A DNA stretch of 61,000 bases, the filler included, from Asterionella formosa (lineage: Eukaryota): assembly GCA_002256025.1 (NCBI GenBank). It is 5 parts of 5 records of this genome, joined end to end, with 100 filler letters (N's around TTAATTAATTAA, not from the genome) between each part and the next. Parts side by side here need not be neighbours in the genome. Positions count along the whole stretch, not along the records: positions 48,884 to 61,000 come from NKIB01007833.1; 4 more parts are not named here. One strand, 5' to 3'. The notes under the pieces are model-generated. The model did no database searches. It was not told the origin of the DNA and saw nothing but the letters and a program-made list of their open reading frames with translations. The position numbers and the translations under genes are program-made. Within the stretch, counting starts at the first letter, position 1, and every line of letters begins with the position of its first letter. Shown piece by piece: positions 16,981-61,000 of this stretch.

Positions 16981-17599
16981 TGTACATACATACATTGTTT
17001 CCAAGTAGACTACTCCTTTTTAGTTATACTCACTACAAACATAGCATTTTTATCAAAACCTCAAATTACATTGCACTTCACATGTGCGGGCACTGCAAAT
17101 ATGTACTCCTTAGCTTTTACTGAGCACAATGCATACCGGTATACGTATATAGTAGGGTTATTGGCAGTTAAAAGCAGTGTGCATCAGACCAGTTAGAGAA
17201 GTTAATCATATCCACGTCGATCTGTTATGTCATTTCAGCTGAATTTTATTTAGCTGAAATGATATGAGCACTCAAAATCTGGTGAGTAACTTTGTTCTTT
17301 AAAATAAATTAGCCAAGTAAATATATTTCTGACGCAGGCCTTATGATTCCTCCTACTATCTAATTTTCGGGTAATTTTTATTTCACCCAAAACCTCTTTT
17401 CTCTATCAAAACTTAGATTTATTTATATAGCAGCAGGATGAGTGAGTGATAGCAATCTCTCCTGTCAAATGCTTACCTGTAGCCACGTGTACCTACCTAC
17501 TTACAGTTAATCTTCAATAGAAGTCAATGCACAACTAAATCTATTAATTGCTCACAGCCCTTCATCTTGTACTTGTATACCGGAAAAGCTCCACTGATT

Positions 17600-20300: not shown

Positions 20301-21179
20301 GCATGAATACATATGATGACAATTCCAAGTAGAATGCCGATAGTATATATGATGTGGACTTGCTTTGATTGTCAAGTAGTAATGACAGACCTACACGGTT
20401 ACATGTGAATTCCAGCTGCTGGTACAACACATATATATAGTGATGTTATCACTATATACATGTTATACTACATACTACTGGGTACTACCAGTACTTGCAT
20501 GTGTGTTTGTACAGGTGCCTGTGCGTGGTATGGGGTCGATGAGACAGCAACTCCATCTTGACCATGACGAAATTATGGATTTGAATATCTTCAAGAATAT
20601 TAACAATGAACAATTTCAATTTCGCACGTTTATGTAGACTAACATAGACGAGATTATCGTTCAATAATGAAAATATTTGCACTATTATTGACAACAAAAA
20701 GTTGAAATCGGTGCTGGAATTTGTTTTTGGTCGTCATTTGCTCAGTTTTGAAGATATGACCAAAAACGAGACAGTGTTGAGTCCGTGGTGATTAGCTTGA
20801 TAACTTTGACTAGATAAGGTTTTCTATATTTATATTTTGTAGAAATAGATGAGAAAACCTGGGCGACAGTATTCTCGGAGAGGGTACAACATTTGAAGAT
20901 GCATCAAATTCCTCTACGTCAATTTTGTAGTGAGTTTCATGTAAGCAATAATTGTCGTGGTTCATAGTTCTATGGAATCTTGATAAGGTCATTTAACAGT
21001 TTAATATAGACATACTTTCAGCCATTAAACAATACACTGCTTGTCCTTTACATGAATAAAAACTTCGCATTGCGGAAATGATCACGAACACCACTGACTG
21101 ACGGTTTATGCATTTTCGGACACTTTTATGCAAAAATTGTATTCTTTCCAGTATTTATCATTTAACTCGAATACAAACT

Positions 21180-25000: not shown

Positions 25001-27470
25001 ATGAGCTCTCCAACTTCTTTTTGCTCGTCCACTTCCAGCACAAGGCATTCTTCGACTCGAGCTCGTCATGTCTTTGGCGATCTTATATTAGATGTAGCTG
25101 AAAGTCCTGTCGGTAGTCTCAGCTATTCTCCATCTCCTTCTTTAGCACGTGTCAGCCCAGTAAATACAGCGAGCAAAGACAGCGCCGATGTCAGTGAAAA
25201 TCATCCGAAGGTCATCGATTTTAACAATAAGGAAAATGTGCCCACCAAGCGCCGCATTAATGAAAAGAAAGTTTCCTTTGCAGAACAATCAGATAACACT
25301 TTCGATAGCAAGGATGAACTCTATCGATTTCGCACGCAATCTCAGAGGTGGGATCTGGTCAAAAAAACGCAGGACGCAATTAATACTGCTAGCATTAGCG
25401 TCAACCAGACTCTCAATGCTGCACGTCACGCTAAAATCAATTTAAATCAAAAGCGGGCCACAGCGACAGCGAAGCTTCGCGATCAATGGAAGGAAGAAAA
25501 GGAGGAAGCACACTTATTTCACGCCGAAACAGCAAAGCAACGCCAAGAATTGCTAGCTCTCCAGAAGCAGTTGTCGACAAAGTTTCGCACGAACAAGAAT
25601 GCTCGCGATTTATTGGAGAAGCAAAAGCAACTTGACGCGATTGTTCGAGAGTCCGAGTTCAAGTCGGAGGTCTTTCGTCAACACCAAAGCAAACTCAAGG
25701 AGGAACGCTATCTCCGTCGACGAGAGTCAACTGAGAAGCGCGCAGCACTTCGAAGAGTGCACCGTGATGGGGAAGAGAAGCTGCGTATGATTCAAATCGA
25801 GGAAGACGAAGCAGTTCATGAAGAGCGATATGCAACAAGCATAGCAACGCGTGAATACAAGAAACGATGTGCTGACCATCGACGAACGAGTTTCCAATTC
25901 CGCACCGGAGATGCTCGGCGGATTCGTGAACTTCACGCCAAAATCGAATCTGACCGTAAAGTACAGTCTCAAGCGAACTACGAACTCCAATTTGCCGCCG
26001 ACCGAGATACTGATACCTATCGGAAGAAGCAAGAAGAGGAACGTCGTTATAGTTTGGCGTTCCGAAATGAGGAAGGGAGAAAGCATCGCGAGAAGGAACT
26101 ATTGCTGAGGTCAGAAAATCTGGTTGCACAACATGCAAGCTATGAACTGAAGCTGGCTGGTGAACGTGATTCTGATAAATACAAGAAATTTATGGCAGAT
26201 GAAAAACGAAAGAGTCTTGCTTTCCGCAATCAGGAAGGTCACCTGCATAAGGAATTGCGAAATCAGCAGGTACAGGAAGAGATGGTGAATATGCACCAAA
26301 ACTATGAACTCAAATGGGCCGGAGAGAAGGATGTCGAAGCGTATGAACAAAAAATGGAAGAGAACCGCAGAAACAGTCTAGCTTGGCGGAACTTAAAGGG
26401 GAAAAGAGAACGCGACAAGGAAAGGGAAAGACAATTAGAGGCACAAGCGGATGCTCATTCCAGCTTTGAACTAAAATGCGCCAGTTTGCGAGATGTTGAC
26501 GCACACCATAAAAAGATGGCAGAGCAGCGTAGAGACAGCGTTGCTGCACGCAACAAGGAAAGCCGCAAGCAACGAAACGAAACAATCAGTCGAGAGAACA
26601 ATCAAACCGAATTGGTCCATCAGGAATACGAACTCAAATGGAAAAGCGAAAACGATGTAGCGGCCTACAATCGCCACATGGAGAAAGAACGTCGAGAGAG
26701 TTTGCGCGTTCGCAATGAAGAACGAGTCAGTCATGCCAAAGTCATGGACGAGCTACGGTCTCTTGCAATTGAGCAGCAAACGGAGTCTTTGATGCTCAAA
26801 TGGGCTGGGGAGAATGATGCCAAGAATTACTTGGGCGCTGTTGAGGACGAACGGAGAAAGTCACTGAAGTTCCGTAACAAAGAAGGCAAACGACTCCGTG
26901 ACCTTGACAAAGCGGCTTATAATGCCGCTGTTTCACAAGCGCACGAAGAGGAGGTGTTGCAAGCAGCCGGTAAGCTCCACATTGGACCACATCTCATTAG
27001 CTCCACTCATACTAACCCACAGTTCTTCTCTAGCTCACAACGACGTAGAAAACTACAAGAAAGAATGCGCTAAAAGAGATCGACTTTCAATTCAATTCCG
27101 ACTTAAAGAGGCAAACATCCAACGCCTGGAGGAAGTAGCTGAACGGGAAAAACACCAGGAAATTGAGGAATTCAACAAATTACTTGAAGAACATGCATGG
27201 AGCGATGTTCAGGAGTACTTTAACGACTGCCAACAGCGCAAACGGCAGTCACTTGCTTTCCGAGCCAAGGAAAAGCGAAAGCACTTTCAGTGGGCACAAC
27301 TTGAAGCAGAAAGGGAGATTGAACGACAAAGCAAGGACTCTCGTTATCGAAGTCTTGATCGCCGGCATCAAGAAATGGCGAAAAGCAAAGAACGCGCTCG
27401 AATAGTATTGGATGCTATTCAGCATGCCGGCTGTACATTTTCGTCTAATCCAGTCGGGCATCTTGTTTGA
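25001..27470 (+). CDS. Charged alpha-helical protein (~801 aa) with ten exact 54-aa repeats; exons 25001..26969 and 27034..27470; function unknown
   Basis: Intron 26970..27033 (GTAAG...CTAAC...TAG) joins the two track ORFs and preserves the 162-nt repeat phase. Unit is roughly RRxSLxFRNxEG...YELKWAGExD. Confidence 0.85.
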
Positions 27471-28299
27471 AGCAAATTGTTATAACTCTGTCAGTATTAT
27501 AGGGAATATACTCAAAATTTTGGGACTTCAGATGAGTAATGATATGATGGGTTAGCAGCAGTTCGGAATCGACAAACAACTTCTAATATATGGTATTTCT
27601 TTTCTAGGCTGTTATTAGTCTAGAAATGAAAACGAGGTTCTGGCATGACAATTTGACCACATTTCGGGGATACTTAAGTAGACTAATAATATGAAATGGA
27701 CAAATCATAAATTACTTAAAAAATTTGGAAGGTGAGTCAAAAGCTAGAGCCAAGTCATGTTTCACCTATTGGCAAGGGAGTCCAGAACGATATTAAGGAA
27801 TAGCGCTATGTAGTGAATGAAATAAGACTGGGGTTGGGATCTGACAACATGGCATGGAGCTAAGGTCTTGAAGGAATTGACAAGGGAGAGCAACAATGCA
27901 TATTTTCGTGCACAACGTCTATCACAATATTGCGTAAAGATTCCGTATTTGAAGCCCTCACTTTAACAGCGGAATCAATTTTTTTGCCCGTTGTGCGGTC
28001 GTGGAGAGCAGCTTCAAAGGAAAAAATCAAGATAGGCATGAAACAGGTTACAAACCAAAGAAAATATTCTGTGTTATTGTTGTGAACACCACACCAGTTC
28101 ATGATAAGAAAACCGATGGCCTCAATAAAGGTCAAAAGCGTCTACGTATCTGCGATAGCCTACATGACGCTGAACTCAATCCTTGAAATCAGTGTATGTA
28201 ATTCTCATCACACGCAGTCAATATGAACATGTAAGCGAAATTCTGGTCGACATCAGAACCTTGTGACTCACATGTTTATGTATATTCGAAACATGTACG

Positions 28300-29520
28300 A
28301 GCAATTCCCGCTCCAGCAATCGTCTTCCCATTCGGGATTTTTAAGTAATTTTTATGCTTTTAAGTAATTTTTATTTAGGGGCAATATGGGGCAATAAAAA
28401 TTTTCGGAATAAAAAAAAATTCACGATTTTAGCATGACAGCTAGAATAACGGTAAATACATAGAAAGGGTACAACACAACAGGCGTAAAACAGACGAGAA
28501 GGATTGTAACATGCAACATCAATGAAAATTGAACATGATGTTTGGAGCAACCAAATTATGAAATGCGATTTAATAAGTAGCATCAAATGAGAAATATTGT
28601 TTTGGGTTAGAAATGAAGTAAAAAATAAGAGTTCCAATGGAGACGTATTCATTGTGACGTTGTAGTACTTACACAGGCAATTGAATTTCCATCACCACAC
28701 AATTAAAGACCAAAATAAGAAGGGAAAAAGCTGAACCCAATTTAGAACTGTATCATTATTTAGCATAGATGATCTGGTTGCTGCAACAATGTACATTGCT
28801 GTAGTAGCCTGCTGACACAAGTTGCAGTCCTTCCGCCCACAGTTGTTCCTCCCACCACCAAACAACCCTGATCATCATTCCATTCCATTCCACTCTGATG
28901 GAGAAAAGTCGTCAGGCTGCTCCAGCAATTCCCGCTTCAGCTATCATCTTGCCATTCGGGTACTTCTAAGTAATCTTTAGGCTCTAAGTAGTTATTATTG
29001 TGGGGCAATATGGGGCACATCGAATTTTTCGGCATCAAAATTGCCGATTTTTAGCATGACAACCAGAATAATGGTAAAATGCATGGAGATGGTACAACAA
29101 GCGTAAAACACACGAGAATGATTGTAACAACATGCAACATCAATGAAAATTGAACATGATGTTTGGAGGAACCAAAGTATGAAATGCGATGTAATAAGTT
29201 GCATCAAATGAGAAATAGAAAAAATTGTTTTGGGTTAGAAATGAAGGAAAAAGCAGGAGTTTCAATGGAGATGTATGCATTATGACATTTTAGTACTTAC
29301 ACAGGCAACATTGCTTGACTTTCCATCACCACGCAATCGAAGACTGAAAGAAGAAGAAAAAATGCTGAACCAAATTTAGACCTGCATCGTTATGTAGCGT
29401 AAATGGTCTGGTTGCTGCAACCATGCGCATCGCTGTAGTAGCCTGACACCAGTAGCAGTATTTTCGCCACAGTCGTCATTCCTCCAGCCACCAAACAAGC
29501 AACCCTGATCATTCCATTCT
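28300..29520. repeat. Diverged tandem duplication of a ~620-bp non-coding unit
   Basis: AGCAATTCCCGCT...GGGGCAATATGGGGCA...ACATGCAACATCAATGAAAATTGAACATGATGTTTGGAG...CAACCCTGATCAT occurs at about 28300-28890 and again at about 28924-29520. Confidence 0.8.
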
Positions 29521-30919
29521 GAGCAAACGTGATTGCCACGCTGCACCAGCACTATTGACTCTCCCTAGCTGAGTATTTATGTAGCTTGTGATATTAACTC
29601 GTAGTAGAAATGTAGCAAAGTGCATTAGTACAAGAAAAGCATGATTGCTTGGCGGCAATATTGACATCATGGTAAAGGACTATACACATCAACAAATACA
29701 ATCAACAACAATATGTCGTCAAAGAGTAGTCATCGATAAATACATTGGCTCTTATGTAGATACATACAATCGAAACAAAACGACAGTGTGGAACGGCAAA
29801 CGACGATGGAAGCGATCAAAATGGACTATGGAAGCAATCAAATCGGAACTTCGCTCACCAATTTTGTATCTATGATCACATTCAGTGTTTCACTGTTGTA
29901 CTCACCAATCCGCTCTAACAAGCGTCACACACAGGACACAATGGGCTCATAAGAAAGTCGAAAGTTCCTGTTGCAAGCCTTAATTGAGCAACAGCAGGCA
30001 GGATAGAGTGAGAATTATAATTGTGAGGACGAAATCGGGCATTCGGTATGTAACATCAATCAATATGTGAACGATACAATTTAACATTCTGGTCTTGTAA
30101 AGATAATACCGAGTCTACAGCTATAATTTTTTAACGTGTTCAAAGTAAGCATTAAAGTTTAGCTTAAACCATGCATGGTTGTTTTCAGTACCACGTACGT
30201 ATGTAGGGTAGATGCCTACTGGTAGAATATCCGTTAAGCATCATCACATGCATGACCGGAGCAAAAACTTGCCACCAACATCAGATGTATCGCTATCATC
30301 GCTTGTCCGACGAAATATGGATGATGCGACTACATGAATCCCTCGAGAAGACAAGCAATCCAACAACCAACTGCATCCGTTAGACAACGAATTGGTACTG
30401 GCGTCATCACTGAACTGATTTCGCTTCAAACCGGTAATGATGGACGACGATCGGCATGGTGAAAGGTGAATTGCCGGAGTCCACTTTTCAGGAGACAAAA
30501 AAACGAGGTGAATTCTAGTTATAAATTATTAAAATCTGAATAGTATATAAAATGGTTTCCTTAAGTAGACCCCTTGTCAATTTCGGCAATCCCGGGGCTG
30601 GACAACCGAGGGGCGATTGCTACAAATTGTAATGCCAAAATGCGAAGATCGGAAATATACAAAATATATTGTAATGATGGGCAATATCGGACCTTTGGCA
30701 TTTTCGATGTAAAGATAGGAAATATACAAAATATATTTTATATGATGGGCTAAAGCGAGCTAAAATTGACATTTACACTCGATGAGTGGGCAGTAGGTAA
30801 GCAAATGGCGCAAGAATAGCTAGTCTGTGAATTGCCTGTCTCAGTGGCTACATGCCTTCTCGTAAACATGTGTACTCGCAGTCATGAGACCACCTCGGGC
30901 GTGTAATGCTTTCAGCAAT

Positions 30920-32500
30920 ATCTAGTCCCTCTAGCTGAATATATGTAGCTTGTGATACAAGCTAATATTAGAAATGTAGAAAAGCGCATGCCCAAACAAA
31001 TTCTTCCATACAGTAGTACAAGCAAGGGGACCTGTCTTTCTGTCAGCCGCACCCTCGCAACTTTATGGCTGGTTGCAACCTGAAGATCAATGAAGTAGGA
31101 TACGTAGGCCTTAGTACAGACTTTCTTTTGCATTAAATAATTAAGAGTAAAAAATTGTGACGGATACAAAAATTGATGCAAATTCTTTGATAAATCTCCC
31201 CTCAAAAGGTATGTAACATCGATCTGTTGTCGTCGTTCATGAATTTGATTTTGCTGCTTGCTTCTTGTTTGCTTCGTTGCTCTGTTGTTCTTCGCTATGT
31301 TAGATCGTTGACATGGGTTGCCTTGCAGAAAGTTGTGTCGAAATTGAGGGCACAGCAGTGTGTTTTGAATCGTTTGACAAGCTTCTCAACGCTGATGGGT
31401 CCGCTTCATGTGCTGTTGTGTCAACTTCGGCGTCCATCCTGTCATGTTTTTGTTTATCCAGATCGTTCCAAATCTTGAAGTATGCACATGTATTTTTTGT
31501 CTTCCTTGCCTTGAAAAGTGTCTTGTATTTTTCGATGTTAACACTTTGTCTGTTGACATGCTCTCTTGCACCACAGACATGAAGTTCTCTTTAAACTTTT
31601 TCCTCTTCGTCAGAGAAACCCGACGGTAAAAATTCTTGACGCAACCCCAAGAATACTCGATTCCCTCTCCTGCAACTTGAACCCCTTGTTACCTCACCTT
31701 TCTGTTCCATGAAAGCTGCTTCCTCGGCTGATATCTGCATCCATCTGTGCATCCTTTGTTCATAGCCCAGATATGATCATTTGCAGAAATCCCATTGGTA
31801 TTGAATCATTGCAGGTTTTTCATGTCCATGAACATAGTATCCTTTCTTCCTTGTTGCATATCGGAATCCCAGACGAGCCATTCAGCGATAGACGGTAGAG
31901 GGTGGGCTAATGAAGGAAGTCCATGTGTGATTAGAATTTGTTTCAACTTTGACTTGACCTCCTCAGAGTCCAAGTCAAGTGCAACACTAACACTCTGCTC
32001 CTCATCTTCCTCAACAGGTTCATTGAATGTCAAATGGAACAGTGCTGGTAGGACCTTGTCATGTATATATTCCGAAAGCATTTCGATGGAAAGGTTATCC
32101 AAGTTTTCTTTGCCAAATCGTTGAAGCAATGTTCATGCAGATGTTGGGGTTGGCATGCAGGAAGGGAGGCAGATCCTTGGATTTTACTCTCAGTTGGAAT
32201 TTGCGGTGTTTTCGGAAATTGCGGTACCACTTGCTTGGACACCTTGTGTGGCAAGTGTGAGTCCTTGGTTGATTAATCTTTTAACAGCAGGTTGAAAAGT
32301 TTCTTGGCTTTATGGGAGTCCCAATATGTTGTTTTTTTTGTTTCTGGATGTCGTTCTTTTCGCTGCTAGGAGCAGACAACTGCAGGGAAGATGATGACTC
32401 AAAGGATGAGTTTAGTAGCTGGATGTCGTTTCTCAGTAATTGGGACAATGGAGCAGTTGCTGGTTCTGATGAAACATCAGTCCCCCCTTTAGCATGATAA
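30920..32500 (-). mobile_element. Degenerate IS630/Tc1-like transposase remnant
   Basis: The minus strand near 31680-31600 reads VAGEGIEYSWGCVKNFYRR, resembling the C-terminal catalytic (E...IE..W) segment of DDE_3-type transposases; fragmented. Its 3' end (~30927-30990) matches ~29563-29643. Confidence 0.55.
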
Positions 32501-34177
32501 ATTTACTAGTACTAGTAGTAATTGCTTCTTTCCCTTCTCCTTTGTCTTGAATTCAATTCTTCTCCTACTAGACTAGTCATAATAGCTTTACTATTGGAAT
32601 CAAAACTAGTATATAGAGAACATTCTTTCTCAAAAAGTCGAGGTGAATTACTACTACCACTAGATGATATCACATGACAATCACAAAATTTTTGACCACC
32701 ATGACCCCGATTTCCACTTCTTAGCAGCTTCTTCAATGGAAAAAATTTATCTTCCCACTCAGATAATATACATATTTAGGAAGCTTAGATACCGCTGATC
32801 CTGTAATATAAACAAGTCATTGCTTACTTTTTTCCTTTGTTTGATGCTTATGTCGAAATATCATCACCTTCTTGCCTGTTGAAATATCGACCTCATTCCC
32901 CCGAATGAACAAGATATAATTTGAGCTCTCAAAATGTTCGTCTAACTCAATCTGCTCCTTTGGCTCTGCCTCAATTAAGTTTTCATTGAGGAAATGTAGA
33001 CAATCAAATAACTTGATTAGCCTCTCCTTTATGTTGTGCGCAGCAAAAGCACGCACATCTATCCATTCCTACTGAAAGCGAGAACGCCATAATGACATGA
33101 GCTCTTGCATATATACTGGCAATTGCTCGTGATCCCTCGTCCCAAAATTCTTTGCTTTTGTAGCCGTTAGAGATAAAAATGGTGTCTTTGTTGATTAATT
33201 TAATTTCATGACATCAACAAAATTTATAAAATTAGTGTTGCTTAACGCTGTATCTGCAGCGATACACATTCGGAGCAACAAAAAATGTGTTGCTGGAAGC
33301 AACATATCACCCGGATATGTGAGATACTAAAAATTGGGCCAAGCAACATTTTTTTTATTTTATCTCTGTTAAGAACGGCCCTTACATGTTAAATCGTTAT
33401 AAGTATGATCATACAATCATATTCATAATACCTATATGTATGATCATGATCATACTACAATCATACTTATATTACCATTGTTTTCTGTAACTTGTCAAAT
33501 TTGATAACAATGCACAAAATAAGCATCATGATTATTGAAGCATAGTAATAGCCTTCCTTGAATGATTGGTTGTGGGAGTTTTTAGATCACTCATGTAAAT
33601 ATTGCTGTCAGTACCAAGTCGTGTTTGCAATTTTATTTTGCATTTTGAATGGCACCCATCATTGTTGGATGGTTACTAAACTTCTTATATACAATGTTGA
33701 TGGCTACAATCTTTCAATGAAACAGTGGACTTGAAATTGTTGTAAAGTATAGAAGTGGGAGAAGAAGTAGCAATTTGCTGATGACTAATTCTAAAAATTG
33801 TGAGGAAAGTCTAAGAACAAGTGATTGCAGGATGTTTGATACGATCATAACAAGGTTAAACTCGAACATATCCCTGGTTCAAAACTCAAAAGTTGATGAA
33901 TATCCTGTCAGTCAATTTGATTTCCATCATACTTGACAATACTTCCAATACTACCTGGTCTTATTCCTCATTTCAAAAGCAAACAATCTCTAAACATATT
34001 GATCATTTTCATTGCAGACATGGATAATAACAACGTATCCATTTCATTCAGACCAATCTACTAAAATGAATGCCTGAGTCGTCACTGCAAAGGACAACAA
34101 AAATTGTTGCCCATTGTTGTACGATATTTGCTGTCGTTGCAACATGCGCTTCATCCAAATGTGCAACTACATATGAG

Positions 34178-39906: not shown

Positions 39907-40268
39907 GCTTTGTTTGTGTAGTCCATTGGGTTCCGGTTTGTGAGACAGACAGCAAGTACGGTAGGTCTTGGGCCCTCTGGGAGGCCACATGATGCGACTT
40001 CAAATCATCCACTTTTGTCAAGTTCTTGAGGTTGCGGCCCCAGATTAACCCTAGTTTAGAGTAAGACATTGCTAGGGTTGTAAAATTTGCATGGTATGCA
40101 GCTGTAGGCATATGGGGTGGTGTGAATATCTTTTGCGTTTTGACTAATGGCAGGAGGGATCTCTGTTTCCCAATAGATACAAACTATCATTCACATTTTG
40201 CATAGCTAATACTGGTATTTTGCCGAGGACAAAAGAACTTCTTTAAAGTAGCTAAATAGATTATTGTC

Positions 40269-41047
40269 NNNNNNNNNNNNNNNNNNNNNNNNNNNNNNNN
40301 NNNNNNNNNNNNNNNNNNNNNNNNNNNNNNNNNNNNNNNNNNNNNNNNNNNNNNNNNNNNNNNNNNNNNNNNNNNNNNNNNNNNNNNNNNNNNNNNNNNN
40401 NNNNNNNNNNNNNNNNNNNNNNNNNNNNNNNNNNNNNNNNNNNNNNNNNNNNNNNNNNNNNNNNNNNNNNNNNNNNNNNNNNNNNNNNNNNNNNNNNNNN
40501 NNNNNNNNNNNNNNNNNNNNNNNNNNNNNNNNNNNNNNNNNNNNNNNNNNNNNNNNNNNNNNNNNNNNNNNNNNNNNNNNNNNNNNNNNNNNNNNNNNNN
40601 NNNNNNNNNNNNNNNNNNNNNNNNNNNNNNNNNNNNNNNNNNNNNNNNNNNNNNNNNNNNNNNNNNNNNNNNNNNNNNNNNNNNNNNNNNNNNNNNNNNN
40701 NNNNNNNNNNNNNNNNNNNNNNNNNNNNNNNNNNNNNNNNNNNNNNNNNNNNNNNNNNNNNNNNNNNNNNNNNNNNNNNNNNNNNNNNNNNNNNNNNNNN
40801 NNNNNNNNNNNNNNNNNNNNNNNNNNNNNNNNNNNNNNNNNNNNNNNNNNNNNNNNNNNNNNNNNNNNNNNNNNNNNNNNNNNNNNNNNNNNNNNNNNNN
40901 NNNNNNNNNNNNNNNNNNNNNNNNNNNNNNNNNNNNNNNNNNNNNNNNNNNNNNNNNNNNNNNNNNNNNNNNNNNNNNNNNNNNNNNNNNNNNNNNNNNN
41001 NNNNNNNNNNNNNNNNNNNNNNNNNNNNNNNNNNNNNNNNNNNNNNN
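40269..41047. other. Assembly gap (779 N)
   Basis: Run of N. Confidence 0.99.
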
Positions 41048-41053
41048 ATCATA

Positions 41054-42430
41054 ATGATGCCCGGTCCACATCCCACGAAACAGAGTCATCATCATCATCA
41101 CTATCAACTCTATTCACAAAGATGGCTTGTTTTGGTTGCTTTTTCGACACTGTCCATCAACAGCGCTTGGATTTGGATAACGTGGTCCCCAATGGCTGAC
41201 GAGGTTTCTCGCTTTTGGGGCGTGACTGAAGGCGAAGTGGATGCATTATCCGCTGTGTACATGTTCATTTACGTTCTCGGTAGTTTTCCTTCCATTTGGC
41301 TTGTCGTCAACGTTATTGGTTTGGCCCGTGGCCTCTGGGTAGCCTCTATTTTAAATGTGATTGGCGCGTTGATTCGATTCATTGGGATGAATCACTACAA
41401 ATCAGTGTATTGGGGTACGTTATTTTGTGCCTTAGCACAGACATTCACATTGGCAACGCCACCATTAATTGCTGGGAACTGGTTTGGAGCCTATGAACGG
41501 GCTACAGCAACAGCCTTGGGAGTCCTTGCTAATCAGTTTGGGACTGCATTGGGTTTGGGCTCAACAATTATTTTTGATTTAATTGTCGTCCCAAGTGAGG
41601 AAAATGGCAAAGAAAAATCATTCCTAAATTTGAATTGTGTTCATTCCTATCTTGGCACTCAGCTCCTTTTCGCCTGCATTGCGCTTTGCATGGTCTTCAT
41701 TTTTGTCACTGCTGATGGACCATTGACTCCTCCAAGTTCTGCAGCAGCCTCCAAAATAGTTTCAATTGAAGAAGAGAGGGAAATGATAATCCAATTCGCT
41801 AACAAGAGTTCTGCTCATCCTCGGAAAGTGACATCACTATCCTATTTGGAATCTGTACATGTCACTGTAAATCAGACACCATGTTTTGTTTTACTTTACG
41901 GAATAGCGGTAGGAGTATTTTATACCATTCCAGCCTTCCTCAGTCAGCTTGTACCAAGTTGGTCACCAGGAAGCCGCGGTTGGTTGGGCGTCTCGTATCA
42001 GCTTGCTGGAGTCATGGGATCATACATCTCAGGACGTGTTGTTGATGTATATCAGCATCATCAACAAGTGAGTACCATTTTGCTAGCTGGTAGTGTTGCA
42101 TTGCTTGCTGCATTCACCTGGGCACTTATTTTTGAAGGTGGGTTACCAACCTGGACCTTTGTTGCAAGCAGTGGAGTAGGCTTCTGTCTAGCAGCCTTCA
42201 ACACTGTGGGCTTTGAGCTAGGTACAGCGATGACATATCCTGCAGATGAAGCTGCTGTAGCTGGTATCTTGGAGTGTGCTGCAGAGCTTGCCGGTTTTGT
42301 TCTTGTCACACTAGGGGGACAATTGAAGACAATGGATTACAACTTTATCTTGTTTCAGTTGTTGGCTGTGTTTTCCTCTCTGTCACTAATGATGGTCATG
42401 AAGGCAAAATCCACAAGACCAACAGATTGA
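41054..42430 (+). CDS. MFS transporter, FLVCR/SLC49-like (458 aa); start lies next to a gap
   Basis: YSQRWLVL...WITWSP and AQTFTLATPPLIAGNWFGAYERATATALGVLANQFG, plus GFELGTAMTYPADE; about 12 hydrophobic segments. Confidence 0.88.
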   Translation: MMPGPHPTKQSHHHHHYQLYSQRWLVLVAFSTLSINSAWIWITWSPMADEVSRFWGVTEGEVDALSAVYMFIYVLGSFPSIWLVVNVIGLARGLWVASILNVIGALIRFIGMNHYKSVYWGTLFCALAQTFTLATPPLIAGNWFGAYERATATALGVLANQFGTALGLGSTIIFDLIVVPSEENGKEKSFLNLNCVHSYLGTQLLFACIALCMVFIFVTADGPLTPPSSAAASKIVSIEEEREMIIQFANKSSAHPRKVTSLSYLESVHVTVNQTPCFVLLYGIAVGVFYTIPAFLSQLVPSWSPGSRGWLGVSYQLAGVMGSYISGRVVDVYQHHQQVSTILLAGSVALLAAFTWALIFEGGLPTWTFVASSGVGFCLAAFNTVGFELGTAMTYPADEAAVAGILECAAELAGFVLVTLGGQLKTMDYNFILFQLLAVFSSLSLMMVMKAKSTRPTD

Positions 42431-49944: not shown

Positions 49945-50619
49945 AGAGAAACTGCTGGCAGATCGCAAAGAGAAGAAGCATACTAAGTAGCATGGAAGGA
50001 GTAGCAAATGAAAGCATCATCATGATAATGACTATACATCACCAAGCAAACCCAACAGATAACCACAACCATGATGGATGTTGATGCTCAATTTTCAAGC
50101 AGTGCAAACTCGAAAGGGAAAAACTGACAAGATTGTTGCTAATTTTGATTGACATGAGAGATTCTAGCACAAACTCCCTGAAAACAGCAGATATCATGCA
50201 GTTGTTTAGAATTGTTTTGATAATCTACCTTCCCTACAAAACTTATGATGTTGAGAATACAAGTGTTATGACTGATAAAAGTGTTGTCAGTTCAACAACA
50301 AGTGTCTTTGGAAATGAGCTCAATCCAACAAATACTACGCCAATTCCCTCTTTTGTTCATAATGATGAGCAAGATAAAGATCAAGGTCCAGGACTAGGTG
50401 GGATTTTTATTGACTGCCAAGTCGTTAACAGTGAACACCTTGCATTGATTGCAACAAATTTGTCTGCTCCATTTGCTGTGATGGTTTTCGAAATCTCCAG
50501 AATATTTGTTTTTGTGGTGCATGGTTTTCAATGCACAGCTCCAATGTTCAGGAACAAATTAGGCAACTTATATACACATGAAAATGGTTTACTATATAGT
50601 TACATAATGTATATAGTTT

Positions 50620-51862
50620 CAGAAATGCAGCGAACTCCCCTCCGGGTTCCATACATAGACATATCATTACCTCCTAGTACCAAGTCTACTGGCGGACTAA
50701 CCTACACGCTGCTTCTGATCCTCCTCCTATGCACCATGCCCGTTTTGGGTTCCTTTGCTGCCGCTCTTCCACTTAATTTACCTCCACCACCAGTGTTTCA
50801 TCATCCCAACACTGCTTTTAGAATTCAAAGAATACAGAATCATCGAGAACCCCTCTCTCTACACTGCACAAGAAACCCAAAGCCACAGAACCATTTGTTG
50901 GCGCACATTTCACGCACCACTCTCCAATCCCTGCATTTTCCACCACTGTCACTTCTCCTCCCCCTCGACAGACCCCTAACTCTCCTGCTTATCATGTCCT
51001 GATAAACCATTTTGATGGTCCGCACAGCTATTCGAAAAGAGTCATCTACCACAGCCAGCCCCAAACCCTCTATTTTTCCGGCCACCAAAAAGGCACCTTA
51101 CCCAGCGCTACATCTGACAGAGTCTCCTCCCCCTATCAAAACCTCCCCAAACCCAAAAACACAGCGCCTTTTGACCGCTCTTACCACTCTGTAAGGCTCC
51201 ATTTCAGCTTAGCATTCAATTATTTGATTCCTACTCAGCAAACTATTCCTCCGCCCAAGATTGTAGATCCAATTAACTCCAATATCACTGCATTATTCTT
51301 TCATTCCAGGCCTCCTTTCAAAAATATTTTGCTTCCACATCTCTGCGCCAGTGATTGTCCCATTCTTTTGAATAGCACCAGCTAGCTCAATACTCTGCCT
51401 TCACTAGCTTCCAACATGCCTTCAGCTATCAGCCAAGCAACTCAATCATTTCACTCATCTGAACTTTGCTAGCTACCTCTTAATGTCGTCATTCTTACTA
51501 GCATCCAATATATTCTCACAACTCTCTCTCTGTCTTCCAGTAGGACCATGCATCCATTCTTTTCCTCTCTTTCTCACCATGCTTCAAAGATGATTTGTCA
51601 TGAACATTTGTTTCTCTCACTTTCTCCACCAAAATCTAAGTGCTACATGGGCTCCTTGCCTGAGTCACGCCCAATAACAAAACCTCCTCATCTTACTCTA
51701 AGAGCCGCATGGGCTCCTTGCCTGGCTCCCCTGTCCTAAATTTACAATCCTGGCCCTCTGGGCCACAGTGCAACCCAAAGAACTCCACCATAGTCAATGC
51801 TCTATAATGCATACTTAAATATTTTCTTTGCAACTAGTTACATAATATATATATATATATAT
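50620..51862 (+). mobile_element. Possible 5'-truncated, decayed non-LTR retroelement 3' end
   Basis: Abrupt C/T-rich, G-poor segment with broken frames ending in a (TA)n tract at ~51845-51860; no diagnostic RT motif seen. Confidence 0.25.
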
Positions 51863-52910
51863 TAAGCTATCTTAATAACTTACTGATTTTACTAAGCAAC
51901 TTCCTGCTTTTACGAAATTAGAAGATTGGTGTAATCTTTCCTGTGTGGATCATCATACCAACCACCATTTGATATTGTCATGTCATACAGTTTCAAGAAT
52001 ATGTTGGATGGAAGACAAGGAAATTTTTTGCAAAAGAGTCTTGTTTCCCATGATGTGTTCATGTCTGTCCAATTGTAAGATGCGCTTTTTGCTTGTTGCT
52101 TTGGAACTTGCTTTCTTCCAACAACACAAGCAACCCTTGTCTTCTTAACACCAGAGGTTGTTTCATTCTTATTATTTGCTTATCAGATGTTGTTGGATGG
52201 AGATTGCTGCAGATTGAACTTCCAAATGGAACTGAGAAACCGGTTCATTTTGCAACACACCAGCTGGCAAGCAAGGCTGCTGGTAGTTGCCAGCCATGGC
52301 AACCATTGTTGCTTCCATTCTGGCTGCACACATTGTTGATAATGCACCACCAGGAAGGTTGACGATGATAGTATTGGTGAATTATTATTATTTATCAATA
52401 AAAATATTAAAAGTAATGATAATTATATTAATAATGATATGCAATATAAAGGACAACAATACTACTAATACTTAAAGAAGGATCGACTATCGTAGTACGG
52501 TACTACCGGTATATGTGATGACGATTTTATGTTGTTTCCGCTACCGGTAAATTTTGATTGGTGGAGACATTTTAGGGTTACGAAGATTGGGTCAGAAGTA
52601 TCGAGGATGACCCCCAAAATATTCTAGCGAACGAAGATTAATCTTGGTAAACAATCATGGGGGATTTGCAAGTTATTTATAGCCCGAAAGGGACGAATAT
52701 AAGAAGATGAAACGCCCAACAGGTATCTGGGCTACTCAACAAATCATCGTAATTCGGGCACCGTAATACGGGGCCTATGTAATGTAGTAAATATCGATTT
52801 TACACATGAATGTTCAGTATAGTTAGTACCAGGTACCAGGTACTAGGTACTACTGCCTGGTAGGTCGTTACCAGGTACCGTATCTGGTACCGTACCTGTA
52901 TGCATTACGG

Positions 52911-55186: not shown

Positions 55187-55751
55187 AACTGGGGATTGGA
55201 ATGTGAACCCATTTATTAGAATGAACATGTCGAAGTCCTTGAGGGACGATTCATTTGTTGCACTCTATTATTCATATTAAATGAAACACATATTCAAATA
55301 GGAAAACGATATTTTGTCCCCCTTTTGTGATGATGCGAAATATTTATTTCCTTTACTGTACGGTATGTACCAGTATAATAAAAGATTATTAACAAGGAGG
55401 TTTTGTTGTAGCAAACGAAATTTCTATGTATCATGTATACACGTGTATTTACGGTAGTCATCACGTCATCACATCGACTTGTAAACCTTAGTATATACAT
55501 ATATATATACCGGTATGTAGTATGAAGTACCTAGGTCTTCAGGTAAGGAAGGAACAAGGAATCCCCTTCGGTCTGTCTGTGGCTCCTGCCTTGTTCACTC
55601 CTTTTACTCCTTACGCGTTACTCGATACATGATTGCGTGATGAGGCGCCGACTCAACAATGGCAGCCCTGACTTTACAAGTTGCTTCTCACAACCCTTTT
55701 TTTGTTGGACAAAGTTTTCGTGTCTCTTTTCAAAAATACGACCTTACGACC

Positions 55752-56156
55752 ATGTTCATCCCAAAGCAGAACCGCATTGCCACCTTCAGCTACCTCTTCA
55801 AGGAGGGCGTGCTGGTGGTCAAGAAGGACACTCGTTCTCCAACCCACCCGGCCATTGAAGGACCTTCCAACTTGGAGGTTTTGTGCCTCATGAAGTCCTT
55901 GAAATCCAGAGGATTCGTCCGCATCACCTTCAACTGGCAGTACAACTATTGCTACTTGACCACGGAAGGGATCGAGTACCTGCGCAACTACTTGGCCTTG
56001 CCAGCTGAAATTGTGCCAGCGACTCACAAAAAGACGGCCGCCCGCCCAGGTGGACGTGATCAAGAGGACGAAAAGCCAGAGCGTGGAGGAGACCGTCCTC
56101 CAGCCTTTCGTGGTGGAGAACGCAGTGGGGGATTCGGACGTGGAGGTGGTATGTAA
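55752..56156 (+). CDS. RPS10: 40S ribosomal protein S10 (eS10)
   Basis: MFIPKQNR...YLFKEGVLVVKKD...NLEVLCLMKSLKSRGFV..FNWQYNY..LT.EGIEYLRNYLALPAEIVPATHKK and an RGG tail. The true start is ATG 55752. Confidence 0.97.
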   Translation: MFIPKQNRIATFSYLFKEGVLVVKKDTRSPTHPAIEGPSNLEVLCLMKSLKSRGFVRITFNWQYNYCYLTTEGIEYLRNYLALPAEIVPATHKKTAARPGGRDQEDEKPERGGDRPPAFRGGERSGGFGRGGGM

Positions 56157-56413
56157 CATGTAATACTCTTGGATTGTCACACCCTACCAAAACGCCTTGT
56201 TTCGTATATTTATTTACCAATTTATTGTACCGGTAGTCTACTTTACTTTTCGCGCGCTAGGTAGACGTTGATATGCCAATGAATAGTAAATCATTGGATA
56301 GTCTACTTGTTTGATTGATGTTCATGTGTTTTGTTGAAACAAATATCAATTTCCATTGCACCACCTTTCAACATGGCAATTATTACAGAATTTATAAAAA
56401 ATAAAACATGGTT

Positions 56414-57127
56414 CTATACATTTGTTTGTCTTGCAGCGCCTCCTCCAACGGCAGACGTTGCAGCTGCGCCAGCAAGCATGCCAAATAAATTGTGTCGAAT
56501 GGCAGCCATGGCCCCCTGCTGTGCCCCTTCTTGGACCATTTGAGTGAACTTCGCCTTTTGGTCTGACGAGCACTTGTAGTATCCATACACATTGGCCACT
56601 GACAAGGACCCGCCCATACAAACTGTCAACAACCAGCCCAACTGAAATTTCAGTAACCCAACCATAAAGAGACACATCCACACCAGGGGTGTAACATACA
56701 GGACAGTCCAGAACACTGACGTGTCAAACTTGTTCGACGCCCGCTCGTTGGCAGATTCGAATATCCAACGAGTGGTTTCCCCGTCCACTTGGTTCCACCA
56801 TCGCAGTCCCACCAACAAGCGGCCAGTGATGTTCTTGACGACCCAAAAGTCCGCTGCGAGCAGCAAAATGCAACACACTGTGACGGTAATGAACTGAGCC
56901 CCACTGACTCCTCCTCGTCCGTCCGAGACGAACCACCCCCCAAGGATGTACAAGGACAGGGCAAGTAGTTTAAAGAGACAGTGAAAGATGCACGCGACGG
57001 GGTGCGAACTGTTCTTCAAGGAGAGGCTGCTGCCTTCTGTTGCGCCCCCGCCGCCAGCGTTTCGGTTTCCTTCCCAGCTGGACTGGTCCGGCTCTCCTTC
57101 GATGCTGAATTGAAGGTCGTGCGACAT
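56414..57127 (-). CDS. TVP23: Golgi membrane protein TVP23 (FAM18)
   Basis: HPVACIFHCLFK, LLAADFWVVKNITGRLLVGLRWWN, WIFES and NVYGYYKC. Confidence 0.95.
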   Translation of the reverse strand: MSHDLQFSIEGEPDQSSWEGNRNAGGGGATEGSSLSLKNSSHPVACIFHCLFKLLALSLYILGGWFVSDGRGGVSGAQFITVTVCCILLLAADFWVVKNITGRLLVGLRWWNQVDGETTRWIFESANERASNKFDTSVFWTVLYVTPLVWMCLFMVGLLKFQLGWLLTVCMGGSLSVANVYGYYKCSSDQKAKFTQMVQEGAQQGAMAAIRHNLFGMLAGAAATSAVGGGAARQTNV

Positions 57128-58495
57128 GGAAAGAAAGGACTATACAAGAGGGACTTGACAGGATGTGATTAAAGAATACACTGTTGTTGCAGGATGTGAA
57201 AACGGAATACACTGTTGTTGCAATATACCGGTACATATGTACAACCTGAAGTGGCAACGAGTACCGGTACCCGTGCAGTAGTAGCAAATCCGCAGAAGCG
57301 ACAACTGTCGTGCCGTGCCTAGCAACAAGAATACCATATCCAAGTCCTGCTTCTGCTAATACATACTACTGGTCCAATGTACTACTAGGTTCTCCACTAC
57401 CACGTAGAATAACACGTTTTGTCACGAATTTCTGATACCAGTACTAGTTCAAAAATCTGAAACAATCCATCAGTAGCTGAGCAAGTAGCTAGCGCTTCTC
57501 TATGTATTAACGAGCTACACTGAACATTCATTTGTATAATCGATATGGTTGTTTAGTCATACTAATAGATCGAATGTAATGAAATAGAGGAGGTTCAAAG
57601 CAGTTTTTAGGAGGTAGTACCAGGAACTTCACTTGGTTGTTGTGGTTGCCTCTTGTGTGTCATCAAAAAGCAGTCTTGATTTTGATTTCATGGATGTCAT
57701 TGCTGTTGTGGCGCTTGTGATAGCATTTGATGCTTTGGGTAACATTTCCATTATTCTGGCACTTCTTGGTTGCTGGATGAAGTGGGTCCTTTGAACCTGG
57801 TGTTGAGATTCGCAATTTTTTTCATTTTCCAATCATGCCTGCATTCAATAACAGACAACCCCTAGTACTAGATTTATTTCCGAAAACTATTGGCAGCATT
57901 CATGGCATGATGTTAATGTACTTTGAGGTCACCAATGCTGTGGAAATTCAGAGTAAAACATCCCTCTTATCAGTGCTAGAGTAGTTGTCATCATCAGCCA
58001 TTCTTGTGACAATCCTTTGTATAAATTATGTTTAGTTTCATTGTGATGAAACTACTTCTACATGTGATTTCTATGTCAAATCATACAAGATCTAAAAGTC
58101 TGAAAATATATATCTTTCTTACTTCACACGATTTTCAACTTCTTCATATCTCAACCAATCCTGGTCACATTTCTGACTTAAGCTCCTCACCATCATACTA
58201 AATACATTAGCTTTAGTTTGAAATGTGTCAAGGATTAGCAGGGAAATGAAGAAAATTGATTTCCAATCAACCCCTCATTTGTTTAGCCCCATTGTAGAAA
58301 TCATACCAAGTGCATGATGTAGTAATGGTACCTGGTAGTAATTGATGGCAAATATGCATTACTACTATGAAACGTAGTACAGAGAACCACCGGTATTTTA
58401 CATAAAACATGTATTGTAACAGTATTTTACACCTCCTTTTTCATTTTCAGCGCTATGATTGTCGTCTCATGGGATCATAATAGCCACTAAAGCAG

Positions 58496-61000
58496 ATGGC
58501 ATACCCTTCCTTCCTTCCACTATTTGGATGCTTTCTCTGCCTATGGTTACTAACTTCCTGTCAGGGATTCATCTCATGCGAGCAACATTACTCAAAGCTC
58601 CGCCTCAATCAAGAATTATTCACAACAAGCAAAAATACTGAAAGTTATCAGAAAACAGAACAGCAAGCTGTTGATACATTTATACAAGCTAGGCCATCCA
58701 AACGATTAGCCCCGAGGGAGCTCCATGAAAATTACCTTCCAGAGCTGGAGGTTCATCTGCTGGAACAGAACCAAAAACTATCGGTAAACGCATCGAAATG
58801 GGCAATTGGGATCAGGCTCGGACGAACCAAGTTTTTGGCTGAGTATGCCACAAGATTGCAGCGACTTGGTCTGTTGACGGAGAAGTCAATTCGACGCCTC
58901 CAGTCGCCTGAAGGTGTATTGAGCCCGAAGGAACTTCATGAAAAGTATCTTCTGGAGCTGGAGATTCATTATCAGGATGGGAACCAAAAACTATCGGTAA
59001 ACGCATCGATATGGGCCAGTAAGATCAGGCGCGGCAGAACCAAAATTTTGGCTGAGTATGCCACAAGATTGCAGCAGCTTGGTCTGTTGACGGAGGAAAC
59101 AATTCAAACAAATGTTACGGATAACATTCATTTTGAGAGCCGAAATCATCGCCATATATTGCCTGAAGGAGTCAAACAATCGTCCCCGACAACAAGCTTT
59201 GAAAAGTACCTTCTGGAGCTGGAGGATCATCTTCAGGATAGGAAACAAAAGCCATCTAAGAACGCATGGAGATGGGCCGGTAGGATCAGGCACGGCCAGA
59301 ATAAGTATTCATCTGAGTATGCCACAAGATTGCGGCGACTTTTTCTGTTGACAGAGAAGTCAATTCAACGCGATATTATTGAGAATCGCCCAAATTTGCC
59401 AAAAGAAGTCAAACGATTGACCCCGAAGGAACTTCATGAAAAGTACCTTCCGGAGCTGGAAGTTCATCACCTGGATAACACTAAAAAACCATCGAAAGCC
59501 GCTTCAATATGGGCCAATAGAATCCGGTGCGGACAAACCAAAATTTTGTCTGAGTATTTCACGAGATTACAGCAGCTTGGTCTGTTCACGGAGAAGTCAA
59601 TTCAACGCCGTCAATCGCCTGAAGGTAGATTAACCCCTGCGAAACTTGATAAAAAGTACCTTCTAGAGCTGGAGCTTCATCATCAGGATAGAAACCAAAA
59701 ACTATCGGTAAACGCATCGATATGGGCCAGTAAGATCAGGCGCGGCAGAACCAAAATTTTGGCTGAGTATGCCACAAGATTGCATCAGCTTGGTCTGTTG
59801 TCGGAGGAGACAATTCAAACAAATGTTACGGATAACATTCATTTTGAGAGCCGAAATCATCGCCATAAATTGCCTGAAGGAGTCAAACAATCGTCCCCGA
59901 CAACAAGCTTTGAAAAGTACCTTCTGGAGCTGGAGGATCATCATCAGGATGGAAAACGAATGGCATCTGAAAACGCATGGAGATGGGCCGGTAGGATCAG
60001 GCACGGACGAATCAAGTATTCGGCTGAGTACGCCACGAGATTGCAGCGACTTTTTCTGTTGACAGAGAAGTCAATTCAACGCGATATTATTGAGAATCGC
60101 CCAAATTTGCCAAAAGAAGTCAAACGATTGACCCCGAAGGAACTTCATGAAAAGTACCTTCCGGAGCTGGAAGTTCATCATCTGGATAACACTAAAAAAC
60201 CATCGAAAGCCGCTTCAATATGGGCCAATAGAATCCGGCGCAGACAAACCAAAATTTTGTCTGAGTATTTCACGAGATTACAGCAGCTTGGTTTGTTCAC
60301 GGAGAAGTCAATTCAACGCCGTCAATCGCCTGAAGGTGTATTTACCTTGAAGAAACTTGATGAAAAGTATCTTCTGGAGCTGGAGATTCATTATCAGGAT
60401 GAGAATCAAAAACTATCGGTAAACGCATCGATATGGGCCAGTAAGATCAGGCGCGGCAGAACCAAAATTTTGGCTGAGTATGCCACAAGATTGCATCAGC
60501 TTGGTCTGTTGTCGGAGGAGACAATTCAAACAAATGTTACGGATAATATTGATTTTGAGAGCCGAAATCATCGCCATAAATTGCCTGAAGGAGTCAAACA
60601 ATCGTCCCCGACAACAAGCTTTGAAAAGCACCTTCTGGAGCTGGAGGATCATCATCAGGATGGAAAACGAATGCCATCTGAGAACGCATTGAAATGGGCC
60701 AGTGGGATCAGGCACGGCCAGAATAAGTATTCATCTGAGTATGCCACAAGATTGCGGCGACTGTTTCTGTTGACAGAGAAGTCAATTCAACGCGATATTA
60801 TTGAGAATCGCCCAAATTTGCCAAAAGAAGTCAAACGATTGTCCCCGAAGGAACTTCATGAAAATTTTCTTCGGGAGCTGGAAGTTCATCACCTGGATAA
60901 CACTAAAAAACCATCGAAAGCCGCTTCAATATGGGCCAATAGAATCCGGTGCGGACAAACCAAAATTTTGTCTGAGTATTTCACGAGATTACAGCAGCTT
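58496..61000 (+). CDS. Tandem helical-repeat protein (at least 835 aa, 3' partial) with a signal + Phe presequence and at least 10 HA-domain-like modules; absent from the ORF track
   Basis: Manual translation from ATG 58496 (in-frame stops just upstream) has no stop through 61000. It begins MAYPSFLPLFGCFLCLWLLTSCQG-F; modules are roughly EKYLxELExH...SxNAxxWAxxIRxGxxKxxxEYxTRLxxLxL. Confidence 0.88.
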   Translation, partial: MAYPSFLPLFGCFLCLWLLTSCQGFISCEQHYSKLRLNQELFTTSKNTESYQKTEQQAVDTFIQARPSKRLAPRELHENYLPELEVHLLEQNQKLSVNASKWAIGIRLGRTKFLAEYATRLQRLGLLTEKSIRRLQSPEGVLSPKELHEKYLLELEIHYQDGNQKLSVNASIWASKIRRGRTKILAEYATRLQQLGLLTEETIQTNVTDNIHFESRNHRHILPEGVKQSSPTTSFEKYLLELEDHLQDRKQKPSKNAWRWAGRIRHGQNKYSSEYATRLRRLFLLTEKSIQRDIIENRPNLPKEVKRLTPKELHEKYLPELEVHHLDNTKKPSKAASIWANRIRCGQTKILSEYFTRLQQLGLFTEKSIQRRQSPEGRLTPAKLDKKYLLELELHHQDRNQKLSVNASIWASKIRRGRTKILAEYATRLHQLGLLSEETIQTNVTDNIHFESRNHRHKLPEGVKQSSPTTSFEKYLLELEDHHQDGKRMASENAWRWAGRIRHGRIKYSAEYATRLQRLFLLTEKSIQRDIIENRPNLPKEVKRLTPKELHEKYLPELEVHHLDNTKKPSKAASIWANRIRRRQTKILSEYFTRLQQLGLFTEKSIQRRQSPEGVFTLKKLDEKYLLELEIHYQDENQKLSVNASIWASKIRRGRTKILAEYATRLHQLGLLSEETIQTNVTDNIDFESRNHRHKLPEGVKQSSPTTSFEKHLLELEDHHQDGKRMPSENALKWASGIRHGQNKYSSEYATRLRRLFLLTEKSIQRDIIENRPNLPKEVKRLSPKELHENFLRELEVHHLDNTKKPSKAASIWANRIRCGQTKILSEYFTRLQQL
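58721..61000 (+). repeat. Coding higher-order tandem repeat: 711-bp unit made of 261+237+213-bp monomers
   Basis: Anchor AAAAGTA(C/T)C at 58941, 59202, 59439, 59652 and onward; CTATCGGTAAACGCATCGATATGG at 58991, 59702 and 60413. Confidence 0.95.

Follow-up and report, generated by a model that had tools for sequence, protein, structure and literature searches.

The window considered here is the whole stretch of DNA that was analysed, 61,000 nucleotides of Asterionella formosa (assembly GCA_002256025.1), filler included, and the gene of interest, which encodes a putatively signal-led array of small repeated modules, lies at its 3′ end, in the part taken from record NKIB01007833.1. An ATG at position 58496 starts a stop-free frame of 835 codons (58496..61000, plus strand) that reaches the end of the window, as the first-pass annotation of this DNA had described; the gene is cut there, with its 3′ end open. 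An in-frame stop codon on the same strand at 58481..58483, five codons before the ATG, makes 58496 the earliest possible start of this open reading frame (ORF), and the opposite strand contains ORFs of 100 amino acids (aa) only. The encoded protein is 93% identical to a 1043-aa public protein, P0006, across all 835 aa.

The protein begins with a signal-peptide-like N-terminus (aa 1–24; 58496..58567, plus strand), which reads MAYPSFLPLFGCFLCLWLLTSCQG/F, where the slash marks the putative cleavage site and the residues preceding F25 are CQG. It is followed by a unique region, aa 25–70 (58568..58705, plus strand), which starts with F25 and is rich in Ser and Thr. The remainder is occupied by a repeated module, with ten EL[ED].H anchors at aa 83, 154, 241, 320, 391, 478, 557, 628, 715 and 794, the tenth module being truncated by the window end. 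The window part of the protein has an isoelectric point of 9.8, with 144 Lys and Arg residues against 101 Asp and Glu, and the net charge of individual modules ranges from +1 to +6.

All ten of the nine-residue strings around a central Trp that the first-pass annotation listed are present exactly as quoted, and the fixed scaffold that it described is real: 18 of 63 module columns are invariant (L11, E13, L14, E15, H17, S26, A29, W32, A33, I36, R37, K42, E46, Y47, T49, R50, L51 and L54). Judged from the sequences, this scaffold exceeds chance, and the same module is kept in distant relatives at 29–38% identity. The spacing of the modules contains a further order, absent from that annotation. 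It runs 71, 87 and 79 aa (213, 261 and 237 nt) three rounds over, so that what is repeated is a block of 711 bp with three different modules. Tandem Repeats Finder gave the 213-nt period alone because the longest period it considers is 500. No copies of the module were found elsewhere in the window.

Module 1 (SKWAIGIRL; 58706..58894), which also occurs with 9 changes in a short paralogue, P0007, precedes the blocks, all of which lie on the plus strand. Higher-order unit 1 (58919..59629, 711 bp) comprises modules 2–4, with the strings SIWASKIRR, WRWAGRIRH and SIWANRIRC at 58919–59107, 59180–59368 and 59417–59605. Unit 2 (59630..60340) comprises modules 5–7, SIWASKIRR, WRWAGRIRH and SIWANRIRR, at 59630–59818, 59891–60079 and 60128–60316. 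Unit 3 (60341..61000), cut by the window end, comprises modules 8–10, SIWASKIRR, LKWASGIRH and SIWANRIRC, at 60341–60529, 60602–60790 and 60839–61000. The blocks differ from one another at 42 of 711, 31 of 660 and 43 of 660 bases, which corresponds to 94–95% nucleotide identity.

The ORF is a real, expressed gene. The window stretch is present, in part, in 20 of the 24 listed sequencing runs (13 studies, 8 filed as RNA), which are labelled as algae, freshwater or lake water. The runs compared over 55500–59420, all as contigs, were X17 and X9, both poly-A RNA-Seq, X12, which was guessed to be RNA, and X1, which is DNA; X17, X9 and X12 belong to three separate studies. Contigs of the RNA-type runs cover the ORF from 58569 (X9, X12) or 58768 (X17) onward, carry the expanded, rotating modules, and also cover the ribosomal protein S10e and DUF846 genes of the window. 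They are absent from five bins of the upstream spacer (57858–58512), where the DNA run X1 has a depth of 1337–7266, and this silent spacer indicates that the cover over the ORF is RNA and not contaminating DNA. No splice-like joints were seen inside 58569–59420, and the joints at 59415 and 59419, at which contigs appear to go back, have the look expected of a contig entering module 4 where the examined stretch stops. Summed contig depth, which is neither copy number nor expression level, amounts to 20,000–34,000 on the modules in X1 against about 775 in the flanks, and the figures for X17 are high too; nothing is concluded from either.

P0006 was found by a word-indexed protein search, in which one cluster passes out of 7999 scored candidates, with P0006 among its members. 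Encoded on a 3396-bp contig, it shares the N-terminus and the start of the window ORF and contains 12 modules. It ends in ...FSFTPAAVRSSV after module 12, and neither a C-terminal effector domain, which had been contemplated for the window protein, nor any other domain was found in the full-length protein. The tenth module of the window copy, where it parts from P0006, belongs to the rotating and not to the terminal type; the window copy thus has at least one more block, and repeat number differs between assemblies. P0002 was considered as the exact continuation of the window copy and rejected (ENFLRE versus EKYLPE).

The family is very small. A search with the module profile and no length limit found 7 of 1,835,955,588 representative proteins at E ≤ 0.001, these 7 being clusters at 50% identity. 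A second profile search returned the same five proteins, 5 of 8000 scored candidates, and five multi-module proteins match the module profile at E 1e-31 or better. P0007 (418 aa, five modules) is identical to the window ORF over its first 78 residues and continues after module 1 with ...IQYLEQGESPV.... Contigs of X17, X9 and X12 have a loose end at 58892: they match the window up to this point and then carry other sequence, which encodes the same P0007 linker, indicating that these RNA libraries also contain the short five-module form, a paralogue or an allele. P0008 (395 aa) has an N-terminal signal that ends in GAS/F, and P0009 and P0010 have three modules apiece. No DNA loci of the relatives were confirmed in scans of metagenome contigs and prokaryote genome contigs, and the ESM Atlas gave no usable match with the window ORF as query.

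The modules of the relatives, as well as the last two of P0006, contain about six extra residues between helix 1 and helix 2 (‘HGVLRxxS’) when compared with the rotating modules of the window, and these modules with the longer loop are referred to below as the ancestral type. As far as sequence can tell, the kinship of the window modules with the ancestral type is beyond doubt, because both occur in one protein and are matched by the same profile. Module 9 of the window (60602–60790), in which the WRWAGR type occurs for the third time, has four joint changes on the exposed face of helix 2 that give LKWASG. A similar WASG is seen in P0006, in its terminal-type module, and gene conversion between modules may be involved.

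The first-pass annotation read the N-terminus as a signal peptide followed by Phe that probably directs import into the plastid. A control was available in the window itself, an MscS-like ORF (PF00924; 46249–47616, minus strand), which begins with MVRKHNNFLVIVILLLSHSVAS/F (...LLLSHSVAS/F) followed by 50 residues without an acidic one. It has the shape of a textbook bipartite plastid signal, on account of which it was used as the control, and this suggests a plastid-envelope mechanosensitive channel. The most hydrophobic 12-residue stretch of the repeat protein, LFGCFLCLWLLT, has a Kyte-Doolittle value of 2.3 versus 2.67 for the control signal. Cleavage and transit scores were computed with the ASAFind matrix given in Table S2 of PMC4329603, without the SignalP step that ASAFind requires first, and were judged by the decision rule stated in the same article, namely that position +1 is F, W, Y or L and that the transit score exceeds 2 (PMC4329603). 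On this scale G24/F25 has a cleavage score of 5.2, the highest among positions 11–60, and a transit score of 4.31 against the threshold of 2, to which F at +1 alone contributes 3.25. The corresponding cleavage and transit scores are 5.39 and 4.29 for the MscS-like control (SVAS/F), and 4.69 and 4.16 for P0008 (GAS/F).

Two observations weigh against a plastid destination. First, the region after F25 is not acid-poor: the ratio of Lys plus Arg to Asp plus Glu is 2:2 over 20 residues, 3:3 over 25 and 4:3 over 30, while it is 5:0 throughout in the MscS-like control and 3:0 in 25 residues in P0008. In the diatom reporter experiments described in PMC3017844, import halted in the periplastid compartment when the transit region was neutral, and in the endoplasmic reticulum (ER) when it was acidic. 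Second, the contigs of X9 and X12 both start at 58569, 73 nt past the ATG, and have no loose end at this point, which hints weakly that the mRNA may lack the part coding for the signal. With a start at 58569 the frame would have no initiator, since the next in-frame ATG after 58496 lies near codon 487. The DNA run has a variant at 58557, and the contig breaks that it causes may explain the shared contig start.

The lack of net positive charge over the 20–25 residues after F25, together with the behaviour of the reporters, is what would be expected of a secretory-pathway protein that stays short of the stroma, in the ER, in the periplastid compartment or at the cell surface. Here the F at +1 would be incidental and the modules would bind protein or a non-nucleic polyanion. 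Secreted proteins, moreover, often contain tandem repeat arrays that grow fast. It also suits this alternative that the specificity of the broader ASAFind class is stated as just 0.82 (PMC4329603). The alternative has to contend, on the other side, with the weight of F at +1 in a transit score that equals that of the in-window control, and with P0008, in which GAS/F is followed by 25 residues without an acidic one. HA (helicase-associated) domains, to which the modules are compared below, otherwise occur in cytoplasmic nucleic-acid enzymes. Overall, we regard a secretory destination as rather unlikely, though worth keeping in view. Plastid targeting is likely by a modest degree, with the periplastid space, the ER and secretion as live alternatives. 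The signal-type N-terminus, the F at +1 and the plastid-like matrix scores support the earlier claim of plastid import, and the acidic residues of the transit-like region do not.

The best matrix cleavage score in the family, 7.13, belongs to P0010, where it falls 58 residues into the protein at ...LLTKA/FAS (aa 54–63). The part before this site is presequence-like rather than a signal peptide, and either the gene model or the targeting route of P0010 may differ.

The single module was modelled by AlphaFold from a 17-row alignment with a pLDDT (predicted local distance difference test) of 83 and a pTM (predicted template modelling score) of 0.66, and contains three helices, at residues 3–20, 27–37, which includes Trp32, and 45–53. 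In the model of the three-module unit 1 (pLDDT 70, pTM 0.34) each module again has three helices, while the linkers at 62–90 and 157–165 fall below pLDDT 50. The array is predicted to resemble beads on a string and not a solenoid, adjacent repeats not being packed into a superhelix. Foldseek searches of the PDB gave no match at E ≤ 0.001 with either the three-module or the single-module model. Searched by sequence, the PDB gave one chance row at E 1 for family profile A5 and none for profile A4.

A resemblance of the modules to the HA domain, PF03457, had been noted in the first-pass annotation, which did not recognise them as a described family. Many bacteria and protists have annotated HA domains, whose function is, to our knowledge, almost wholly uncharacterised. 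Among the seven family proteins scanned, P0009 alone matches PF03457 (E 2.7e-4, 21.6 bits, profile positions 7–63 of 64). A tblastn search with P0009 against 72,556 plasmids gave weak matches to six records, the best of which (E 0.7) is to a ‘Helicase associated domain protein’ of Streptomyces. The same Streptomyces plasmid contains nine HA domains over the Pfam cut-off, which were aligned as A8, and has open frames with 2, 3 and 4 copies. Read against the motif of A8, the fixed W32 and L51/L54 of the window modules, together with G55, present in 6 of 9, align with the HA Trp and L.aLG.

Alignment of 15 ancestral-type modules with the nine HA domains by hhalign gave a score of 21.3 (P 0.0011) over 59 collinear columns, with Trp placed on Trp and RLxxLG on LxaLG. 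Among 200 column shuffles (mean 8.2, standard deviation 1.7, maximum 12.9) none reaches this score. The top PDB match of the HA profile is 2kta_A (E 7.7e-5), and this HA structure, 2KTA, the only one solved, takes rank 14 of 48,161 chains in the structure alignment, which is sub-threshold. Among the named ESM-Atlas clusters, the best three for P0008 consist of PF03457 to 100%, at a score of 0.82, a lead only.

Several results speak against the assignment. Rows for PF03457 are absent for the window ORF and for five module and unit pieces even at E ≤ 10, and Pfam finds nothing in the other 6 of the 7 family proteins scanned. P0009, the best family member, stays with its 21.6 bits below the Pfam gathering cut-off of 28.4, and it also matches Neuralized at like strength (E 3.6e-4), so that its PF03457 match taken by itself proves little. 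The Neuralized match was rejected as chance, being sub-threshold and falling on a helical module; Neuralized is a beta-rich domain. The hhalign probability for the ancestral-type modules against A8 is merely 20%, and the alignments of the window's own modules with HA are not significant (P 0.093 with A1, 0.14 with A7, which is gappy, and 0.069 with all modules).

With each single result below its usual threshold, and with no Pfam match in six of the seven family proteins, the window ORF or its modules, the three-helix module could be an independent invention of this lineage, its HA likeness being the convergence of a simple helical pattern. This is unlikely, as hidden Markov model, tblastn, profile–profile, structure-alignment and language-model searches all give HA as the first or only named family, and the collinear alignment spans the full domain, keeping both the Trp and the C-terminal LG motif. 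Moreover, reversed profiles, in which helical periodicity is kept, score 9.0 and 7.4 against 21.3. Because five weak results obtained by different methods all name the same family, membership of the modules in the HA superfamily is highly probable. They are best placed as a divergent, lineage-restricted branch of PF03457, a placement that is supported but sub-threshold. The resemblance noted earlier therefore holds for the modules, if only through results that are individually weak, and the view that they belong to no described family was too strong.

The locus is a clean example of very recent gene growth by higher-order tandem duplication, with a short paralogue retained. The three pairs of blocks have ratios of nonsynonymous to synonymous substitution rates (dN/dS) of 0.44, 1.05 and 0.45. 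The value of 1.05 would suit a reading in which repeat instability in a paralogue has recently produced the expanded array as a nearly neutral by-product, and in which the short five-module P0007 form is the functional gene. The same holds for the variation of copy number between assemblies, for the absence from the expanded modules of the six or so loop residues kept in the ancestral type, and for the expression of the short form, seen at the loose end at 58892 in all three RNA-type runs. It is nevertheless quite improbable that the array is a mere by-product, since the frame is open for 835 codons in the window and 1043 in P0006, dN/dS is near 0.45 in two of the three pairs, the 18 scaffold columns are invariant across all ten modules, and contigs from the RNA libraries contain the expanded modules.

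According to the first-pass annotation, the residues around the Trp vary from module to module and set the specificity of each, as in PPR, OPR or TALE proteins. These variable residues are really three module types in strict rotation, since the 711-bp block was copied about three times. Mean column entropy over the ten modules is 0.78 in helix 1, 1.22 in loop 1, 0.75 in helix 2, 0.95 in loop 2, 0.47 in helix 3 and 0.48 in the tail. The nine residues around the Trp have a mean of 0.86 versus 0.75 for the whole module and rank 17 among 54 windows, so that in this comparison, which was set beforehand, they are no more variable than background; the most variable nine-residue window is 16–24, at the end of helix 1 and in loop 1. 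Variability is spread over the whole module, with 40 of 62 columns varying and with nine distinct strings for helix 1 against seven for helix 2. The module types are 57–87% identical to module 2, and the differences between them are dispersed and not gathered at a few positions. In helix 2 the variable positions 30, 31, 34, 35 and 38 alternate with the invariant 29, 32, 33, 36 and 37, as exposed and buried residues usually do in small helical domains. No Pfam match to PPR, TPR, TAL or mTERF was found in the window ORF, in its module and unit pieces or in the seven family proteins.

A modular plastid reader of nucleic acid, each module of which would recognise a base or a short word through its variable Trp-helix residues, is thus very improbable, even if those residues would sit on the exposed face of helix 2, where the third WRWAGR-type copy has its four changes, and even if the protein is basic, because one recently copied block of three modules in fixed rotation would read a target with a three-unit period and not a specific site, because the types differ over their whole length, because variable exposed and conserved buried positions are expected of any small helical domain, and because no packing of repeat against repeat is predicted. 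Just as far-fetched is the bolder idea that HA-like beads form a third, non-solenoid kind of modular nucleic-acid recognition in organelles, with a short word read by each Trp-helix face, and that the block owes its amplification to a target in the plastid genome or transcriptome that is likewise periodically repeated. A specificity determined by each module in turn is unsupported, and the locus does not open a new recognition code.

The best explanation overall is a signal-led, divergent HA-repeat protein that is probably bound for the plastid and binds nucleic acid by avidity, a composite reading that could equally well prove right or wrong. Its gene would be nuclear and belong to a freshwater alga that has a complex plastid, and the protein would be basic and signal-led, with at least ten three-helix modules joined by disordered linkers of 8–30 residues. 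The array would have grown recently through unequal crossing-over of the 711-bp three-module block. The protein would enter the ER co-translationally, after which the F at +1 would route it to the plastid. Many weakly binding, basic HA-like modules might then hold DNA, or possibly RNA, by avidity, in a role of nucleoid or RNA coating and not of sequence reading, and binding would be multivalent and of low specificity in whichever compartment the signal leads to. This avidity mechanism is suggested by the family likeness and the charge.

A weak point of the proposed binding is that, for HA domains, binding to DNA rests on the title of Mills et al. 2013, cited in PMC12191111, in which the structure of an HA domain from Bacteroides vulgatus, reportedly the first structural coverage of PF03457, is said to indicate DNA binding. 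We take 2KTA, the top match of the HA profile, to be this structure. Literature searches on 2KTA and on BVU_0683 found nothing relevant; nor did one on HA arrays in algae with complex plastids, most subscription journals lying outside its scope.

The gene does not define a new class of protein: it represents a known domain family, in a branch that is divergent and restricted to this lineage, and its form is unusual in being signal-led, HA-only and recently amplified. Such a strongly basic array, with its expression in natural lake communities, would offer a tractable way into eukaryotic HA arrays and the question of whether these are organelle nucleoid or RNA-binding proteins.

The other genes of the window are ordinary eukaryotic nuclear genes. 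A myosin head extends over two adjacent ORFs on the plus strand (2022–3431 and 3458–8251), the second of which runs on into ankyrin repeats and a protein-kinase domain. The two ORFs may be one gene with an intron or a frameshift, and the myosin–ankyrin–kinase architecture is unusual. Pieces of a Copia-type long terminal repeat retrotransposon (12325–15090, plus strand) include a gag with a zinc knuckle and a retroviral polymerase SH3-like domain. Further genes encode an MFS transporter, a PrsW-like protease, ribosomal protein S10e and the DUF846 protein. In the spacer upstream of the repeat ORF, the segment 57334–57726 has a summed contig depth of 12,000–17,000 in X1 against about 775 in the flanks, as well as several loose ends in DNA and RNA-type runs, and looks like a dispersed repeat or a fragment of a mobile element. 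The guanine-plus-cytosine (GC) content falls to 0.264 in 40001–42000, where two overlapping minus-strand ORFs lie at 40187–41098, and the GC skew is −0.314 in 50001–52000.

The putative targeting signal is similar to the bipartite signals of red complex plastids with their ASAFAP motif (PMC4329603), in that its hydrophobic signal leads into a small residue at −1 and F at +1, and its matrix scores equal those of the control. It differs in having CQG/F in place of AS(A)/F and a transit-like part in which acidic residues are as numerous as basic ones.

The modules share with HA domains (PF03457; 2KTA) a length of about 60–65 residues, three predicted helices and the occurrence of tandem copies in one protein. 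In both, helix 1 starts with an aromatic residue, F or W, helix 2 starts with a Trp that precedes a basic residue, and RLxxLG closes helix 3. Unlike HA domains, the window modules fall below all Pfam thresholds and are missing about six loop residues, the ‘hG.l’ stretch. The protein differs from HA proteins in that no helicase or nuclease domain is attached, a putative signal peptide is present, and the family comprises 7 clusters among 1.84 billion representatives.

Tandem helical modules are also found in the PPR, OPR and TALE proteins, the organelle-targeted ones of which are nucleus-encoded, yet the resemblance is one of concept only. Repeats of those families form a continuous superhelix with a few defined code positions, whereas the window modules are joined by predicted disordered linkers and show a diffuse variability with a three-module period. 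A parallel in architecture is offered by eukaryotic multi-HA proteins, such as the ‘Helicase associated domain-containing protein’ members of oomycete and green-algal Atlas clusters, the nearest named clusters to P0008 by language-model features. Similarity to them is too low for HMMER, and none is among the matches of the profile searches, but they too consist solely of HA units, over a length of a few hundred residues.

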